Assembly: GCA_044356455.1 (NCBI GenBank)
Contig: JBIKWF010000129.1
Location: 1 to 11,224 of the forward strand
Direction of reading: 5' to 3'
From: Bdellovibrionota bacterium
Lineage (GTDB): Bacteria; Bdellovibrionota_C; UBA2361; JBGSMV01
DNA length: 11,224 nucleotides
The notes beneath the pieces were generated by a model. That model saw only the letters and a list, made by a program, of their open reading frames with translations. It ran no database searches and had not been told where the DNA came from. Positions 2,808 through 11,224 of this stretch are shown here, piece after piece. Numbering within the stretch: position 1 is the stretch's first letter; each line of letters starts with the position of its first letter. The position numbers were made by a program, and so were the translations under genes.

Positions 2808-4964
2808 CTAGTCAGCCCGCGGTATGCCTGCAGCCGCACTTGAAGACGTGGTGCTGGAAGACTTGGTGTTAGAAGGCTCTAGGTCTTGCTGCGCTGAGCC
2901 TTCTTCTGATGCATGATTGTCTTGAGCAAAATCAGTGCTTCTACGGGTCTCAGAGTGTGGAATATCGGCGTTTCTTGTTTCTTGCGTCGCCAATCTTTTC
3001 GATAAGGGAGCCTTGGCTGAGTCAGGGGTGCGCGACTGAGCAAAACTTGACTGAGCAAAACTTGACTGAGCATAATTTGACTGAGCAAAACTTGTAGACC
3101 GAGACAGCGCCGCAGGAGAGAATCGAATTTGCGATGATGCCTCACCCGACAGATTCTGCCCTGAAGACAGCGGACGGCTCATCCTTGAAAAAGCCGAGGC
3201 TTCCGAAGCCCCACCCGACGAACCCGAGAGGCTCGCGCTGGTCGTTCCTTGACCCGTGGTTCGAACGTTGCGGTCGCGCTTAAGCTCTACGTAGCCACGC
3301 GTGAGGGTTGAGGAGCGGTATGGGTGAGTAGTCTGACTTAGTCCGCGTGATTCAAGGATAGCAAAGAGATGGTCTCTGCCCCGAGCCGCGAGTAGGGCGG
3401 CTTCATCGCTCGCTAAACCAAGCACGGTAGCGTAGTTGAACGGCCCATCGCACGCCAATTGTTGCAGTCCGAATGTTGAGCAAGAGGTAAGAAGCAGAGA
3501 GCGAAGCTTCGAGTCAGAGGCGCCCGTAATGGAGCGCCCAAGCGCGAGCGCTGCGTTTGCGCGTAGGGGATTCATGCGATCAGAGGCGAGAAGGAGTGCT
3601 CCTGCAGCTAGCAGGCAGCTCACGAAACTTGGGACTGCGCTAGGCGCACCGGAGCGGTCGTGTTTGAGTTCAGCTTCGCCCATCCCAAATCGCCCGAGAA
3701 CCGCAAGGGGAACTCTAATGACAAGTTCATGGCGCAGCTTCTGGCGTGGATTGCCAGTGAGGCTTGCTGAGCGAAGCCCGTCAGTAACAAATATGGCGCC
3801 TCGTTCCTTTTTGGAAGGATCGGTGCCTGCCACTTCGCTGGATGCTGCGCTAGGTACAGGATCAAGGAATAAGGCAAAGGGAATGCTGTCTATTGAAAGA
3901 CTGTAATCGCTAATTACGGATTCGGGGAACCCGAGTTCCTTAAGTGTTGCGGACAGAGGGATAGATCCCGTCTTAAGCGCGGGGCCAAGAACGGCAGACC
4001 AAAGCTCCCAAGCGTTCTCAAGGACAGGACGAGAGAAACGCTGGGCAGTCCCAAGCGAAAGGGGGCGCGTTTGGCGTGGAACCATGAAAATATCAGCGCC
4101 GGCAAACCAATCTGAGGGGCTCAGCCCCTGCCGGTTATGCAGCGCGAACATTTGCCCTGCGCCACGCAATTGGTCTGAAAATCCGAGGGCAACCACTTCT
4201 GTTCGAACTTCGCGGATGAAGTCTATGAGTAAGCGGCGGAGTTCTCTTTCGGACCACCTGAGCTGTAAGGGGAGGGGGAGTCGCGAGTAGATACTTTGAA
4301 CAAGCTCTCGCGTGTCGACAAGTCGTGCATACATGTCGAGATTGAGCCCGGCAGTATCTTCGCACTTTTCGAATTCGAGAGTCTGGAGAGTTTCCTCTCG
4401 CACGATGCCCCAGTCTCCAAAGTGGTGGGTGCGAGTTTGCTTCTTGCGGATAGGGCGTACAATTCCAAAGCCTTCGAGCACCACCGATCTTTCGGCTTGG
4501 GTGAAGTGAAGGAGTGCCGAGTTCAGTTCAAAGCGTAAAATCTCTCTCGTTTCAACGTCAAGCGCTTTGCGATGTTCTGTCGGAAGCCGGTTGTGAGACC
4601 TGGTCGAGGCAGTGCTCGCGTGCGTCGTGCGAGAGGCCTGAGTTGCTTGAGCCTGCGAAGCTTGACTCTGACCTTGACTCAGAGTGCTGTCGCGCTGTGA
4701 ATCAGCAAGCTGTGAATCAGCAAGCTGTGGTTCTGCAGGGTGGTGTTCTGTGCTCTGCGGATGGAGAGTTTGTGATCCAACTTGTGCAGAGGAATTCTCA
4801 GTCTGCGAAGCAGAAGTCGAATCAGCAGGGGATGAAACAGCAGTCGGCGATACTTCAGTTGACGAAGCTGATGGCGCATTGCTCAGCGCAGGTCGTTTCC
4901 CCTCGCCTTCGGTTCCCTCGAGGGAATCGTAATTCGAAGATGTGGAATCGTTCGATGAAAGCAT
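2808..4964 (-). CDS. 718-aa multidomain protein: disordered N-tail, two HU/IHF-like folds, SUFU-like domain, disordered C-tail
   Basis: Long ORF. aa 1-130 and ~565-718 are Ser/Gln/Ala-rich. aa ~135-200 SVVLEGFGIVR...LEFE and aa ~214-296 TRELVQSI...SERELRRLLIDFIREV...QLRGAGQMF resemble HU/IHF. aa ~318-552 FVTDGL...HELVIRV...SKLRSLLL...DGPFNYATVLGLASDE...TTHPYRSS resembles suppressor-of-fused. Domain calls by eye; exact start uncertain. Confidence 0.75.
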   Translation of the reverse strand: MLSSNDSTSSNYDSLEGTEGEGKRPALSNAPSASSTEVSPTAVSSPADSTSASQTENSSAQVGSQTLHPQSTEHHPAEPQLADSQLADSQRDSTLSQGQSQASQAQATQASRTTHASTASTRSHNRLPTEHRKALDVETREILRFELNSALLHFTQAERSVVLEGFGIVRPIRKKQTRTHHFGDWGIVREETLQTLEFEKCEDTAGLNLDMYARLVDTRELVQSIYSRLPLPLQLRWSERELRRLLIDFIREVRTEVVALGFSDQLRGAGQMFALHNRQGLSPSDWFAGADIFMVPRQTRPLSLGTAQRFSRPVLENAWELWSAVLGPALKTGSIPLSATLKELGFPESVISDYSLSIDSIPFALFLDPVPSAASSEVAGTDPSKKERGAIFVTDGLRSASLTGNPRQKLRHELVIRVPLAVLGRFGMGEAELKHDRSGAPSAVPSFVSCLLAAGALLLASDRMNPLRANAALALGRSITGASDSKLRSLLLTSCSTFGLQQLACDGPFNYATVLGLASDEAALLAARGRDHLFAILESRGLSQTTHPYRSSTLTRGYVELKRDRNVRTTGQGTTSASLSGSSGGASEASAFSRMSRPLSSGQNLSGEASSQIRFSPAALSRSTSFAQSNYAQSSFAQSSFAQSRTPDSAKAPLSKRLATQETRNADIPHSETRRSTDFAQDNHASEEGSAQQDLEPSNTKSSSTTSSSAAAGIPRAD
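3034..3093. repeat. In-frame 15-bp tandem repeat x4 (SFAQS/NYAQS)
   Basis: GACTGAGCAAAACTT x2, GACTGAGCATAATTT, GACTGAGCAAAACTT, within the C-tail of the 718-aa ORF. Confidence 0.95.
4694..4729. repeat. In-frame 15-bp tandem repeat x2.4 (QLADS)
   Basis: GCTGTGAATCAGCAA x2 plus GCTGTG, within the N-tail of the 718-aa ORF. Confidence 0.9.
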
Positions 4965-6027: not shown

Positions 6028-6903
6028 ATGAACATGAATGATACCGAGGTAAAGAAGCAGAAAACGTCGTTTCTAACCTTTACGGTTGATTCCTTTGCTG
6101 ACGGCATTGCCTTTGGTCAGCATCGCCTTGAAGCAGGACAGGACCCTCGCGATTTTTATGACCTCAAGGTAAGTAGCGAAGGGGAGGTGCCTCGGCTACG
6201 GAGCCGCTATGCGCTTCATAAGGCAAACCCACTCTGGGAGCTCGAGAAGGCACTCATGAGGCTCTCGCGCCAGGGAGTGCTCAGCTCTTCCACCATCCAT
6301 TTTGGGACCACCTCAGACCCGTTCTTCCCCTTCGAGGGCAAGTTCGATGCGAGCATGAAATTTCTGCAGCTTTTTGAGCGGTATACTCCAGGATTGCTGG
6401 TAGTGCAGACACGCTCGCCGCTTCTGGTAATTGCCATGCCAGTATTGAAAAAGCTCGGGAACAGAGCTGCGGTCACCATAGCCCTTGAGACTCCGCTCGA
6501 TGACATGGTTAAGCGGTATACCCCTGGATTTACGCGAGTAGAAGAGCGACTACGGGCGGCAACTGCCCTTAGACGATTTGGTGTCGAGGTAACTATGCAG
6601 GTTTCCCCAGTTCTGCCATACGGCGACTGGAAAAAGGATGCTGCTCCCTTTGCTCAGATGCTCGCCGACCACGGGGACTATGTTTATGTGAGGTCCATTA
6701 CCGATGGGTCACCAGATCGGGAGCGGCAGCTCAAAGCGTCCTCAGTTGGGAAGAGGCTCGCCCAAGACAGGAAGTTTCAGTGGCTAAGACCGGATTCGGC
6801 GAACCCTCTCATTACCGCACTAGAGGCGATCTGCCCGGATAAACTAAAAATTCCAGACCGCAAGCTGCACGAGAAGCGCCAATTATCGATTTTCGCGGCC
6901 TAG
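6028..6903 (+). CDS. SplB/COG1533-like radical-SAM-fold protein lacking the CxxxCxxC motif
   Basis: IHFGTTSDPFFPFE, VQTRSPLL, VTIALET, ERLRAATALRRFGVEVTMQVSPVLP match the core blocks of spore-photoproduct-lyase-like radical SAM proteins. Only one Cys in 291 aa; ends RQLSIFAA; GGAG 7 nt before the ATG. Confidence 0.78.
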   Translation: MNMNDTEVKKQKTSFLTFTVDSFADGIAFGQHRLEAGQDPRDFYDLKVSSEGEVPRLRSRYALHKANPLWELEKALMRLSRQGVLSSSTIHFGTTSDPFFPFEGKFDASMKFLQLFERYTPGLLVVQTRSPLLVIAMPVLKKLGNRAAVTIALETPLDDMVKRYTPGFTRVEERLRAATALRRFGVEVTMQVSPVLPYGDWKKDAAPFAQMLADHGDYVYVRSITDGSPDRERQLKASSVGKRLAQDRKFQWLRPDSANPLITALEAICPDKLKIPDRKLHEKRQLSIFAA

Positions 6904-8413: not shown

Positions 8414-8489
8414 GCTCGCTCAAGAGCCCCCGCAGACAAATCCATCTCAGCCCTTGAGAGACCTCTTAGGGAAACTCTGAGAAAGTTCA

Positions 8490-8571
8490 CTCCGTGATCT
8501 CTGTGACCTCTGTGGTTGATTTAAATATTTGAAAAACCACAGAGGGCACAGAGGGCACAGAGAACACAGAG
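8490..8571. repeat. Family-B 9-nt-period hairpin repeat (CTCTGTG/CACAGAG)
   Basis: CTCCGTGAT CTCTGTGAC CTCTGTGGTT, 17-nt AT-rich loop, AACCACAGAG GGCACAGAG GGCACAGAG AACACAGAG, between convergent genes. Confidence 0.85.
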
Positions 8572-8607
8572 AGAATAAATGAAATATCCCGGTTTTTCAG
8601 AGATTCC

Positions 8608-9096
8608 TTAGTAGCGCCGATCGGAGTTCGAGCGGTCGTCGTAGCTTCTATCGTCATAGCGCCTATCATCATTGCGTCTGTCCGCAGGTCGGTCTCGCCT
8701 ATAGCCGTCATCCCGGTATTCACGGTCGCTATAGCCACGATCTCTGCGCAGGTCTTCAAGTTCGCGGCGTTGACGTTCAAGCTCTTCATCCTGACGCCGA
8801 AGTCTTTCGTCCTGCTCTGACTGCCTTCCTGCGGTATTGTCTGCTTCGTTTCCAATCAGGCCACCCGCAATTGCCCCGGCAGCCGCGCCAATCGCGATGC
8901 CAGCGCCTGTGTTGCCAGCTTGATTACCGACTATGGCGCCTAGTCCTGATCCTAGGGCGCCGCCGGTGAGAACGCCTGTCTCTCTTCGGCTCAAAGGCTG
9001 TGAGCTGCAAGAGGCAAGTAAAAGTGCGGCGCTTGCGGCGAGTGAAATTACTAAAAAAGAAGGGCCACCAACGATTTTAGCAGTGTGCATGCGCAT
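8608..9096 (-). CDS. Glycine-zipper lipoprotein with coiled-coil and Arg/Asp/Tyr-rich tail
   Basis: Signal peptide with lipobox LLAS|C; GxxxG zipper GVLTGGALGSGLGAIVG...GIAIGAAAGAIAGGLIG; then QDERLRRQDEELERQRRELEDLRR. The ORF extends to 9105, but GAGGA abuts that ATG and is better spaced (9 nt) for the ATG at 9096. Confidence 0.85.
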   Translation of the reverse strand: MRMHTAKIVGGPSFLVISLAASAALLLASCSSQPLSRRETGVLTGGALGSGLGAIVGNQAGNTGAGIAIGAAAGAIAGGLIGNEADNTAGRQSEQDERLRRQDEELERQRRELEDLRRDRGYSDREYRDDGYRRDRPADRRNDDRRYDDRSYDDRSNSDRRY

Positions 9097-9227
9097 AAAA
9101 AGCATTCCTCAAGAGGCAAAATACACAATTACGAATTCACCTCTAGTATTTCATAAGCCGGAATTCAGCGCAAAGTGCCGGTATTCCTTAATATTTCAAG
9201 TATTCTTGTAGCGGCAAAAATATCCCT

Positions 9228-9254
9228 TAAGGCTTTTAGGCCCCAGTCCGTTAC
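9228..9254 (+). promoter_or_regulatory. Sigma28 (FliA/SigD)-like promoter of flagellin 1
   Basis: TAAG-N15-TCCGTTAC versus consensus TAAA-N15-GCCGATAA; an equivalent element sits at a similar distance before flagellin 2. Confidence 0.7.
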
Positions 9255-9339
9255 CCAATCTTAGAAGTTAGCGAACAATTCAAGCGGCACCTCAGCAATT
9301 AAGTAACGCGCCCACGATACTTAAGCGTTGAGAGCCGTG

Positions 9340-9430
9340 GAACAAGGATTCGGCCTCGGTTTAGCCCGAGAGCGAGAGCTTATTCGTCGAAGGATTGACG
9401 GAAGGTCCGAGTCTTCACATTCAAGGAGGA
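9340..9430 (+). promoter_or_regulatory. CsrA/RsmA-like GGA sites in the flagellin 1 leader
   Basis: GAA-CAAGGA-TTC (9340-9351), CGTCGA-AGGA-TTGACG (9385-9400) and AAGGAGGA at the RBS. Confidence 0.6.
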
Positions 9431-9437
9431 ACTATCC

Positions 9438-10298
9438 ATGGCAGTTACTATTGGGTCTAATATTGCGTCCCTTCAAGCTCAGCGTCGGTTGTCAACCGCA
9501 ACTGATGCCCTCGGTCGTACATTTGAAAAGTTAAGTTCTGGTCAACGCATTAACCGTGCATCTGACGATGCCGCCGGTCTTGCGATTGCCGACAGTTTGC
9601 GCGCTGATCAGCGTGTTGCCACCGTTGCTATCCGAAATGCGAACGATGGTATCTCGACGATCGCGATTGCAGACTCTGCACTTGGTCAGGTTGGTAACGT
9701 ACTTTCTCGTTTGGCAGAACTTGCCGAGCAATCAGCGAACGGCGTGTTCTCGCCGACGCAGCGCTCTGCACTTTCAAACGAGTTCGTGGCGCTTGCCTCT
9801 GAAATTGAGCGTATTGCGATTACTACTGAGTTCAACGGCGTTCGCCTGATCTCTGGTGGTAATGCTCTTACCCTCCAGATCGGATTTAACTCGAAGTCGA
9901 CCTCACAGATTTCGTATACCGGCGTGCAAGGTACTCTTGCCGCGCTTGGTCTTGCCACCACTGGTTCATCGGCACTTGTATACTCAATCAGCGGAACAAG
10001 CATTGAAGATGGTCAGTCATCTTCTCGTCTTGCTCTCGATGCGATTAACGGCGCCATCAGCTCACTTGCCTCTCAGCGAGGTGTGCTTGGTGCGACGGAA
10101 TCGCGACTCCAAGTGGCGATTAACAGCCTCACGGTTGCTCGTGAAAACTTCGCATCTGCGGAAAGCCGCATCCGTGACGTTGACGTAGCGACTGAAGCAG
10201 CCGAGCTTACTCGGTTGAACATCTTGCAACAGGCTGGTTCGTCCATCTTGGCGCAGGCCAATCAGCAGCCATCGCTGGCTCTGTCACTGCTCCGGTAA
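9438..10298 (+). CDS. fliC: Flagellin (short, 286 aa)
   Basis: LSSGQRINRASDDAAGLAIA, RNANDGIS, ESRIRDVDVATE and NILQQAGSSILAQANQQPSLALSLL conserved D0/D1 blocks; RBS AAGGAGG. Confidence 0.97.
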   Translation: MAVTIGSNIASLQAQRRLSTATDALGRTFEKLSSGQRINRASDDAAGLAIADSLRADQRVATVAIRNANDGISTIAIADSALGQVGNVLSRLAELAEQSANGVFSPTQRSALSNEFVALASEIERIAITTEFNGVRLISGGNALTLQIGFNSKSTSQISYTGVQGTLAALGLATTGSSALVYSISGTSIEDGQSSSRLALDAINGAISSLASQRGVLGATESRLQVAINSLTVARENFASAESRIRDVDVATEAAELTRLNILQQAGSSILAQANQQPSLALSLLR

Positions 10299-10309
10299 CC
10301 CTCATAAAA

Positions 10310-10342
10310 CCCTAGCGGGCTCTCGTAAGAGAGCCCCTAGGG
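10310..10342. other. GC-rich hairpin with GTAA (GNRA) tetraloop just after flagellin 1
   Basis: CCCTAG-C-GGGCTCTC-GTAA-GAGAGCCC-CTAGGG. No U-tract on +; the AAAA before it would give a short U-tract only on the - strand. Confidence 0.75.
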
Positions 10343-10761
10343 GGGGAGCACCATCGCTCCCCCGAGAGAGGAGTTACCTTACCACTAACGTAATGGTGCT
10401 CCTTGTCTCGAAGGTAGTGCAAGCTCTTAGGTGTGTAGCGACACGTCGGTCGCTATTGCTTGAGAGCTTCGAAGCCGGGGCCGTTCGTGATGGTAGCAGT
10501 AGGGTCGAAAGTAGGTGGTTCAGAGCGTCATCTCTGGCGTGTAGGTTACTGCGAGCGAAAGCCCGCAGTGAGTGCGGCATGCAGCAGATACTCGTATCGT
10601 CCTATCTAAACCCTTCAGCGTGGTCCCGGCCGTAAGAAGTAGTACTCGACAGGTCGGGCTCTAGAAATATTCTGGGTGCTAAATTTAGTGCCTCGCTAAC
10701 TTTTCGGGCCTCGAGTTGCAGATGAAGGGACGCGGATCCCCTGCAACTCGGGGCCCTTTTT
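10341..10761 (+). ncRNA. Candidate large structured non-coding RNA between tandem flagellins, family unknown
   Basis: Near-continuous ~21-bp hairpin 10421-10469; long-range helix 10474-10483/10621-10630 enclosing a multibranch domain with a GAAA-capped stem; 3' three-way junction; terminator at the end; many G-U wobble pairs on +. Confidence 0.55.
10706..10761 (+). terminator. Intrinsic terminator-like extended hairpin
   Basis: GGGCCTCGAGTTGCAG (10706-10721) pairs with CTGCAACTCGGGGCCC (10741-10756; 16 bp, one G-U); inner GGGA/TCCC stem; followed by TTTTT. Confidence 0.7.
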
Positions 10762-10837
10762 GTATGAAATGCGCGAACGAGTCCAGACCCTTAGGTGCCC
10801 ACCAACCAAAATCTTGGTGAGATTCAAAGATTCTGCT

Positions 10838-10864
10838 TAAGTTTCCCGTTGCCCCCGCCGTTCA
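10838..10864 (+). promoter_or_regulatory. Sigma28 (FliA/SigD)-like promoter of flagellin 2
   Basis: TAAG(TTT)-N15-GCCGTTCA, ending 176 nt before the ATG (184 nt for flagellin 1). Confidence 0.72.
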
Positions 10865-10983
10865 CCTCTTCTGTAGATGGTGTGTGTTCGGTGTCGGGTG
10901 CGGAGCTATCTCTCAAGATATCTTCGCACCCCACCTTGTAAGTTGAACTGATTGAGTCGGTTGCCCCGGGTCTGGTTGCAACT

Positions 10984-11030
10984 CTTGGTCAAAGGATGAC
11001 CAAGGACCTCAATTAGGTAGTCACGGAGGA
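10984..11030 (+). promoter_or_regulatory. CsrA/RsmA-like GGA sites in the flagellin 2 leader
   Basis: Perfect 8-bp hairpin CTTGGTCA-AAGGA-TGACCAAG (10984-11004), an adjacent AAGGA, and ACGGAGGA at the RBS. Confidence 0.65.
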
Positions 11031-11039
11031 TGTGGTGGT

Positions 11040-11224
11040 ATGGCAGTTACAATTGGTTCTAATATTGCGTCCCTTCAAGCGCAGCGTAGGTTAAGCACCG
11101 CGTCTGACGCCCTTGGAAGAACATTCGAAAAACTAAGCTCTGGTCAACGCATTAACCGCGCATCTGACGATGCTGCCGGTCTCGCGATTGCCGACTCTCT
11201 GCGCGCCGATCAGCGCGTAGCGTC
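11040..11224 (+). CDS. fliC: Flagellin, second paralog (5' part only)
   Basis: MAVTIGSNIASLQAQRRLSTASDALGRTFEKLSSGQRINRASDDAAGLAIADSLRADQRVA; 60/61 complete codons encode the same residue as flagellin 1; RBS GGAGGA. Confidence 0.96.
   Translation, partial: MAVTIGSNIASLQAQRRLSTASDALGRTFEKLSSGQRINRASDDAAGLAIADSLRADQRVA

Follow-up and report, generated by a model that had tools for sequence, protein, structure and literature searches.

A conserved hairpin and seed at the end of a flagellin 3′-UTR in Bdellovibrionota as a candidate family of flagellin-regulating small RNAs

A flagellin 3′-untranslated region (UTR) from a Bdellovibrionota bacterium ends in a unit of about 90 nt, consisting of a palindromic hairpin, a single-stranded seed and an intrinsic terminator, and sequence comparison with relatives identifies this unit as the conserved element, not the 420-nt body as a whole. 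We consider it fairly probable that this end represents a family of FlaX-like small RNAs (sRNAs) derived from flagellin 3′-UTRs, which likely repress their targets and are of apparently separate origin. A preceding sequence-only reading had suggested, by analogy with FlaX and FliX, that the region coordinates flagellin paralogs; the complement of the seed is enriched in flagellin leaders in silico, and such a role is probable. The same reading had treated the conserved end merely as a junction and a terminator, and the hairpin and the seed were missed.

Genomic setting and transcription

The window, i.e. the whole stretch of 11,224 nt analyzed here, is an entire contig (G000:C148) of a 4.7-Mb genome that is 93% complete. 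Flagellin A (9438–10298, + strand), whose mRNA is the parent of the UTR, encodes 286 aa with the Pfam domains Flagellin_N and Flagellin_C, while flagellin B (11040–11224, + strand) runs off the contig end. A flagellin end located on contig C49 of the same genome, which carries a seed of class G (see below), is probably the 3′ half of flagellin B. Upstream of flagellin A, a promoter of the form TTAAG-N15-TCCGTTAC (9227–9254, + strand) was found, which resembles the sigma28 consensus. Its pattern recurs upstream of many flagellins in relatives, and transcription would start near 9261–9263. The best match to a FliA model in the genome was partial, below the cut-off and at a contig end. Flagellin B has a separate sigma28-like promoter (10837–10864, + strand), and since each flagellin gene has its own promoter pattern of this type, the interval between A and B is not an operon spacer. 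CsrA-type ANGGA boxes and the Shine-Dalgarno (SD) sequence of flagellin A are located at 9390–9429 (+ strand); one to three ANGGA boxes are present within the last 60 nt of 109 of 111 flagellin leaders, and the genome contains two csrA genes and one fliW. In class G leaders a conserved UGUGUG-rich motif was also observed just past the predicted transcription start, for example at about 10875–10890 in the window.

Elsewhere in the window, a palindromic repeat at 8471–8580 looks like a member of a REP/MITE-like family, for which 433 HSPs mark some 237 loci spread over 115 of the genome's contigs. The ORFs at 2808–4964 (− strand, 718 aa) and 6028–6903 (+ strand, 291 aa) had no Pfam match; by eye, the latter resembles a radical-SAM/SplB-like protein without the cysteine motif.

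Transcription from flagellin A probably reads through into the UTR, as proposed for a flagellin-coupled RNA on the + strand. Weak support comes from one contig of an RNA library, which belongs to a related strain, shows 47 differences and spans 9273–10660 in one piece; such contigs cannot show RNA ends, and RNA libraries can hold DNA. A contig piece from a second RNA study ends at 10659, so that the ends at 10660 and 10659 are at most a hint of a boundary. Four RNA runs gave no cover of 8800–9204 or 10663–11148; the gap at 10663–10761 carries no weight. The AU-rich stretch at 10661–10686 (+ strand) is a candidate processing region with sites at 10667–10671 and 10681–10685 of the RN/WUU type, which is given as the RNase E cleavage consensus in PMC5222698. 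RN/WUU sites occur at most 25 nt from the seed in 43 of 63 UTRs versus 97 of 342 background windows, a difference inflated by the conserved hairpin. RNase E/G is present in the window's genome; RNase J, ProQ, Jag_N and Hfq were not found in this 93% complete assembly, and Hfq was detected in one of 91 genomes of the order.

Folding and conservation of the UTR

The interval 10341–10761 folds with a minimum free energy (MFE) of −191 kcal/mol and exceeds shuffled sequences, with a z-score of −7.2 on the + strand versus −3.7 on the − strand (−5.0 versus −1.9 without the terminator). A bias towards the + strand, as first proposed, is seen for the interval as a whole but not for its core at 10474–10630 (z −2.7 on +, −3.5 on −). 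All seven helices first described within 10421–10630 pair fully. Pair probabilities are mostly 0.94–1.0 for four of them (10421–10431/10459–10469, 10435–10442/10449–10456, 10474–10483/10621–10630 and 10537–10542/10577–10582), whereas the inner helices 10501–10505/10610–10614 and 10511–10515/10601–10605 reach only about 0.35 and the hairpin at 10521–10536 about 0.62. Both the stem capped by the GNRA loop and the terminator of 16 bp and T5 (10706–10761) belong to the MFE structure. A three-way junction proposed at 10640–10681 was not confirmed: the region 10631–10706 folds at chance level (z −0.5). Local hairpins and the terminator account for most of the fold stability. The structure also begins before the proposed start at 10341: two post-stop hairpins without U tract lie at 10310–10362 (+ strand), the first of them at 10310–10342. 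The segment 10299–10363 has a z-score of −7.7, and both hairpins are kept in a close relative (L151). They may form a 3′ barrier for the mRNA after cleavage; in 57 of 63 seed-bearing UTRs, the initial 75 nt reach a folding energy of −15 kcal/mol or lower.

The UTR body (10363–10660, + strand), which holds most of the domains first described, is strongly folded and lineage-specific. A blastn search with 10299–10800 against 60 relatives gave no body homologs; 14 relatives matched, all at about 10670–10710 only. None of the 62 other seed-bearing flagellin UTR bodies matched the body at 10363–10660, and neither further copies of the spacer within the genome, nor matches of 10299–10765 in E. coli genomes (E up to 1), nor matches of the UTR in a plasmid search were obtained. 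An Rfam scan of the window gave chance-level matches only with no family reaching its threshold, in agreement with the expectation of no known family, and RNase P RNA (C107) and tmRNA are encoded elsewhere in the genome. UTR bodies are well folded in all classes, whatever their sequence (class median z −3.8 to −5.1), and that of the window has the most extreme value among class H UTRs (z −9.6). The distance from stop codon to seed in class H ranges from 42 to 392 nt, with the window at the upper end. Within the body, 10411–10419 can pair with 10694–10703 and mask the seed (probability about 0.4), and 8 of 9 pairs of this helix are kept in L151; internal masking is significant in just 7 of 63 UTRs and thus not general.

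Comparison with L151, whose flagellin is 95% identical to flagellin A and which has a homologous UTR, localizes the constraint. Identity is 96% at 10661–10706 and 89% in the terminator, while it drops to 46% at 10501–10615. The outer helices are kept with some one- and two-sided changes, the core is partly refolded and 5 of the 11 pairs of the GNRA stem are broken. Low core identity, broken GNRA stem and refolding indicate that selection maintains the folded state rather than a particular fold. In the related-strain contig X1, the 17 differences within the UTR on which the comparison of strains rests comprise 6 that keep a pair, 4 that break one and 7 at unpaired positions; 8 further differences lie outside this count. 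The body is likely a fast-evolving, nuclease-resistant spacer.

Three other identities were discarded. An 80-aa ORF (10393–10635), considered earlier as a possible conserved unit, has no Pfam match and is not kept in L151, where its region has another start and stop and a frameshift. The single copy in the genome, the lack of a plasmid match and the absence of the motif from viral contigs speak against an IS, MITE or REP element. A resemblance to raiA, noted by eye, was dropped because no Rfam match was obtained.

The conserved unit starts with a palindromic 7-bp hairpin with AAUU loop (10675–10692, + strand), the element defining class H. It is followed by the conserved, single-stranded seed CCUCGCU(A)ACUUU (10691–10704, + strand) and by the intrinsic terminator of 16 bp and T5 (10706–10761, + strand), whose sequence varies between genomes while its position is kept. 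In 24 distinct hairpin sequences, 97% of the cells are paired and one pair is broken in 5; variant pairs comprise four one-sided G-U types, and two-sided changes are absent. The palindrome center remains self-complementary after changes from AT to GC (G049) or CG (G090 L102) and after a palindromic insertion in G019; an insertion in G058 abolishes this property.

Of 91 genomes in the order, 20 contain the pattern of hairpin plus seed, covering 10 families, and none contains a control pattern; flagellin is present in 87. All these patterns were chosen after the data had been seen, and the genomes compared are related. Among 117 flagellin genes with at least 66% identity, a seed precedes a terminator in 65, belonging to 36 of 53 genomes and 12 families. 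This comparison used 60 flagellin regions, some of which had been selected because they carry the motif. These 65 comprise 22 genes of class H, 26 of class G, which have a GGGGCG-type terminator loop, and 17 others. In family f8, no seed was found for 18 genes with enough downstream sequence. Four f8 loci (L074, L078, L095 and L096) have a different conserved structured element 100–300 nt past the flagellin stops, a long GC-rich stem followed by a terminator with a shared start, which is possibly a replacement sRNA in this seedless family. Of 124 genomes examined in the phylum, 22 contain the class G pattern, and the 33 from outside the order are all without it. Flagellin is encoded at 21 of the 26 loci, while three resemble chance matches and two are located at the start of a contig. 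A more distant group of flagellin paralogs has no 3′ seed, and an 8-nt site was found in 6 of 44 of its upstream regions.

Within the window's genome there are exactly two strong sites of seed plus terminator, the one in the window and one after the flagellin end on C49. The genome has more than 20 flagellin-like genes on 21 contigs, mostly with long central inserts, besides short ones, and no seed with terminator was found at the remaining ones. The hairpin-plus-seed loci that were checked sit 3′ of flagellin and 5′ of a terminator, apart from the short contig L059, which holds no gene. An exact-pattern scan of genome contigs yielded 22 loci, of which 12 were set aside as chance matches because 10 misfit the full motif and two more are without flagellin. 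Loci with motif and flagellin belong to metagenome-assembled genomes labelled Bdellovibrionales, Bdellovibrionota, Deltaproteobacteria, Ca. Dadabacteria or 'bacterium'. In a metagenome scan, six of nine motif loci adjoin flagellin and three do not; viral contigs contained none. Coding sequences often cluster by genome or family in a protein tree, whose deep branches are weak and which served only to show this clustering, while the UTR classes persist across families. This suggests selection on the UTR elements themselves.

Complementary sites in flagellin leaders and proposed mechanism

The exact 9-nt complement of the seed, GTAGCGAGG, is present in 11 of 110 full-length leaders from seven families, compared with a mean of 0.07 and a maximum of 1 in shuffled leaders and with 8 of 3294 generic upstream regions. 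The 110 leaders came from 51 genomes, with shorter leaders and genes below 66% identity dropped. When G-U pairs were allowed, 15 of 110 leaders had a site versus 0.65 in shuffles. The reverse-strand control gave none, and none of the 21 f8 leaders contained the exact complement. Tested against shuffles, the seed of the own genome shows significant pairing for 13 of the 21 leaders in class H, the other 8 being without significant site, and for 12 of 17 other seed-bearing leaders. The corresponding numbers are 2 of 24 for leaders in class G, 4 of 11 for seedless genes whose genome has a seed elsewhere, 0 of 8 for truncated genes and 3 of 30 for leaders of genomes in which no seed was found.

Recurring sites are of two kinds, site 1 at the predicted transcription start and site 2 further inside the leader. 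The window's leader carries site 1 only (9263–9274, + strand; hairpin site 2 is lost), a predicted target at the mRNA 5′ end with 12 bp to the seed nucleotides 10693–10704 and −16 kcal/mol (p=0.02 versus leader shuffles), located 164–175 nt upstream of the flagellin A start. It also occurs in L151, G042, G023 and G050. Within the window's genome alone the site is unremarkable, ranking 171st of 1307 genome-wide matches, which speaks against an sRNA. No seed site is present in the flagellin B leader (p=0.44). A site-1-like sequence is retained in three f8 leaders, and no flagellin-linked seed was found among 26 places checked there; site 1 may thus be conserved for another reason.

Further information comes from family f2, in which the seed reads CCUCGCAAC. 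Its leaders contain TGCGAGG in 3 of 4 cases versus 1 of 34 elsewhere and GGTAGTT in 3 of 4 versus none of 34, while TAGCG(A/G)G is found in none of the 4 versus 18 of 34. On sequence grounds the change of seed and site is compensatory and represents one evolutionary event in related genomes. The f2 terminator loops contain GCCCC/GGGCCC. Perfect sites of 13–14 nt are also present in leaders of genes without a seed in their own UTR (G019 L067, G033 L112 and G033 L188). In L188 (G033:C118) the perfect 13-nt complement is located 60 nt before the start of a distant flagellin paralog and was seen in one genome only; it looks like a recently gained target. A search for other targets gave 116 perfect 13-nt places, of which 41, none at already known flagellin loci, were fetched, with 20 places in f8 and f3 and two in the window's genome left out. 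Of the fetched complements, 33 lie in long ORFs and 8 are intergenic; judged without Pfam annotation of the neighbors, flagellin was the sole context to recur among the 41. As a possible second pairing module, (C/T)GCCCC occurs in 8 of 21 class H leaders versus 1.5 expected and is complementary to the conserved GGGGCG terminator loop of class G, e.g. near 19070 on C49.

In the mechanism that we propose, sigma28-dependent transcription would continue through the post-stop hairpins to 10761, and RNase E would cut near 10660–10685, thereby releasing the last ~90 nt as a small RNA and freeing the seed from partial masking by the long body. The predicted probability of an unpaired seed is 0.28 in the whole UTR and 0.65–1.0 in products starting at 10661–10675, with a fully open seed for a start at 10675. 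Once freed, the seed would bind the leaders of flagellin mRNAs and probably reduce their translation. In most relatives, it would bind a leader site whose purine half otherwise closes a hairpin with a pyrimidine-rich arm; opening of this site-2 hairpin would release the arm, which could then pair with the SD sequence 135–290 nt downstream. Class G paralogs, which provide a seed and rarely carry a site, would regulate those of class H in trans. The window's genome has lost site 2, and its seed, which contains one extra A, is perfectly complementary to the 5′ end of its own mRNA, so that autoregulation would result.

When the site was blocked in silico, predicted SD accessibility decreased in 11 of 27 leaders and increased in 2, compared with 37 and 74 of 320 controls, and the freed pyrimidine arm was predicted to gain pairing with the SD sequence in 10 leaders. 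In a smaller promoter-anchored set, the predicted change at the ribosome binding site was downward in 5 of 10 leaders and upward in none. The mean effect on the SD sequence is small (−0.06), and the window's genome shows none (0.50 to 0.49). The decrease of SD accessibility favors repression modestly within the sRNA model. A leader-attenuator model was dropped because of inconsistent U tails after the site hairpin.

Among the alternatives, it is conceivable but rather unlikely that no sRNA is released and the seed acts from the uncut mRNA, where its pairing with the 5′ leader in the same molecule (a closed loop) or in a different full-length flagellin mRNA would control stability or translation. 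In the folded transcript 9261–10765, the helix 9263–9274/10693–10704 has a probability of 0.6–1.0, the extra A of the window's seed matches its own leader, site-bearing genes of f2 and f7 also carry the matching seed, and the icaR mRNA (PMC3868564) provides a precedent for 5′-3′ UTR pairing. However, MFE structures of whole mRNAs join the seed to the leader of the same gene in 6 of 21 genes of class H and 5 of 21 of class G, without a difference between the classes; some leaders in these folds were shortened by a guessed promoter position, and equilibrium folding takes no account of ribosomes. Also, class G seeds are conserved despite the rarity of own sites, and perfect sites occur in seedless genes.

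We regard it as improbable that hairpin and seed determine mRNA stability or localization as a nuclease or protein-binding site, with secondary leader complementarity. A near-invariant hairpin without two-sided covariation would fit, as would the missing Hfq and ProQ and the site-1-like sequence in seedless f8; the more than 100-fold enrichment of the exact complement in leaders, the compensatory change in f2 and the class-specific distribution of sites argue against it. Similarly speculative is a chaperone- and processing-free RNA-RNA network of looped messages, class H palindrome dimers and class G loop-leader kissing that would set filament composition. For the 18-nt palindrome, a dimer is predicted at about −23 kcal/mol versus about −13 kcal/mol for two hairpins, and such a network would count or co-assemble paralog mRNAs.

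The 420-nt multi-domain RNA with ribozyme- or scaffold-like complexity that was proposed first is very improbable and largely refuted. The significant folding of interval and body and the outer helices kept in L151 agree with it, while the lack of a homolog beyond this one close relative, the variable stop-to-seed length, the divergent core with its damaged GNRA stem and the strong folding that is usual for such UTR bodies contradict it. Still harder to believe is a DNA-level role, with the palindrome as operator or recombination site and seed and leader site as inverted repeats flipping the flagellin gene: the 18-bp near-palindrome, its self-complementary center in 3 of 4 variants and the inverted orientation of seed and site around the gene are countered by four retained pair variants that are all G-U on the + strand, by listed seeds that precede terminator-like stems with no inverted arrangement noticed, and by class G, which is without a partner site.

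Significance and comparison with known systems

If correct, the sRNA reading would add a further, apparently independent origin of flagellin 3′-UTR cross-regulation, far from Vibrio and E. coli. A separate origin in such a distant lineage would support 3′-UTR cross-regulation as a general design for multi-flagellin filaments. Of specialist interest are the lack of a detected Hfq or ProQ, the single seed common to paralogs across the order and the visible co-evolution of seed and target; the predicted long-distance switch, with an SD decoy holding the anti-SD arm, is also distinctive. Since all parts are short, the pairing can be tested in vitro or with E. coli reporters despite the origin from metagenome assemblies. 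A prior description of such an element was not found in the literature searched, which excluded most subscription journals.

According to PMC3868564, icaR of S. aureus pairs directly with the SD sequence, whereas the sites described here are at the 5′ end or far upstream; moreover, seed donors without sites exist in the window's order. The pair FasX-ska of S. pyogenes is similar in that, according to a review (PMC4691137), the sRNA binds the very 5′ end of the mRNA, as would occur at site 1, and differs in being independently encoded and in stabilizing its target. As FasX stabilizes from the mRNA 5′ end, site 1 could activate rather than repress, and a FasX-like stabilization is possible for the window's genome.

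FliX, the sRNA from the E. coli fliC 3′-UTR, is described in PMC10578931 as sigma28-dependent and processed from the flagellin mRNA, with many chimeras of fliC 3′ and 5′ ends and negative feedback on flagellin. In contrast to the system proposed here, it was found by Hfq RIL-seq, pairs inside coding sequences and belongs to a single-flagellin species, and the window's UTR has no DNA similarity to E. coli genomes. FlaX, the sRNA from the flaA 3′-UTR of Vibrio cholerae (PMC11879080), is closer. According to this paper and a study on V. parahaemolyticus (bioRxiv 10.64898/2026.08.28.747715), it originates from a major flagellin's 3′-UTR and pairs with paralog 5′-UTRs at several sites, other Vibrio flagellins carry their own 3′ sRNAs, and FlaX of one species has a lineage-specific 5′ extension of about 160 nt, comparable to the long body in the window. 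According to the same sources, FlaX is bound by ProQ, driven by sigma54 and covers the ribosome binding site and standby sites, and its sibling sRNAs are non-homologous. In the system of the window, neither ProQ nor Hfq was found, all promoters look sigma28-type, the sites lie 135–290 nt upstream of the start and the paralogs share one seed. Chaperone binding as in FlaX and FliX thus finds no counterpart in the window's genome, while the location in a flagellin 3′-UTR with a shared terminator and the in silico complementarity of the seed to flagellin mRNAs are common features. By analogy, the element of the window, for which no Rfam match was obtained, would work like FlaX and FliX without being assigned to either family.
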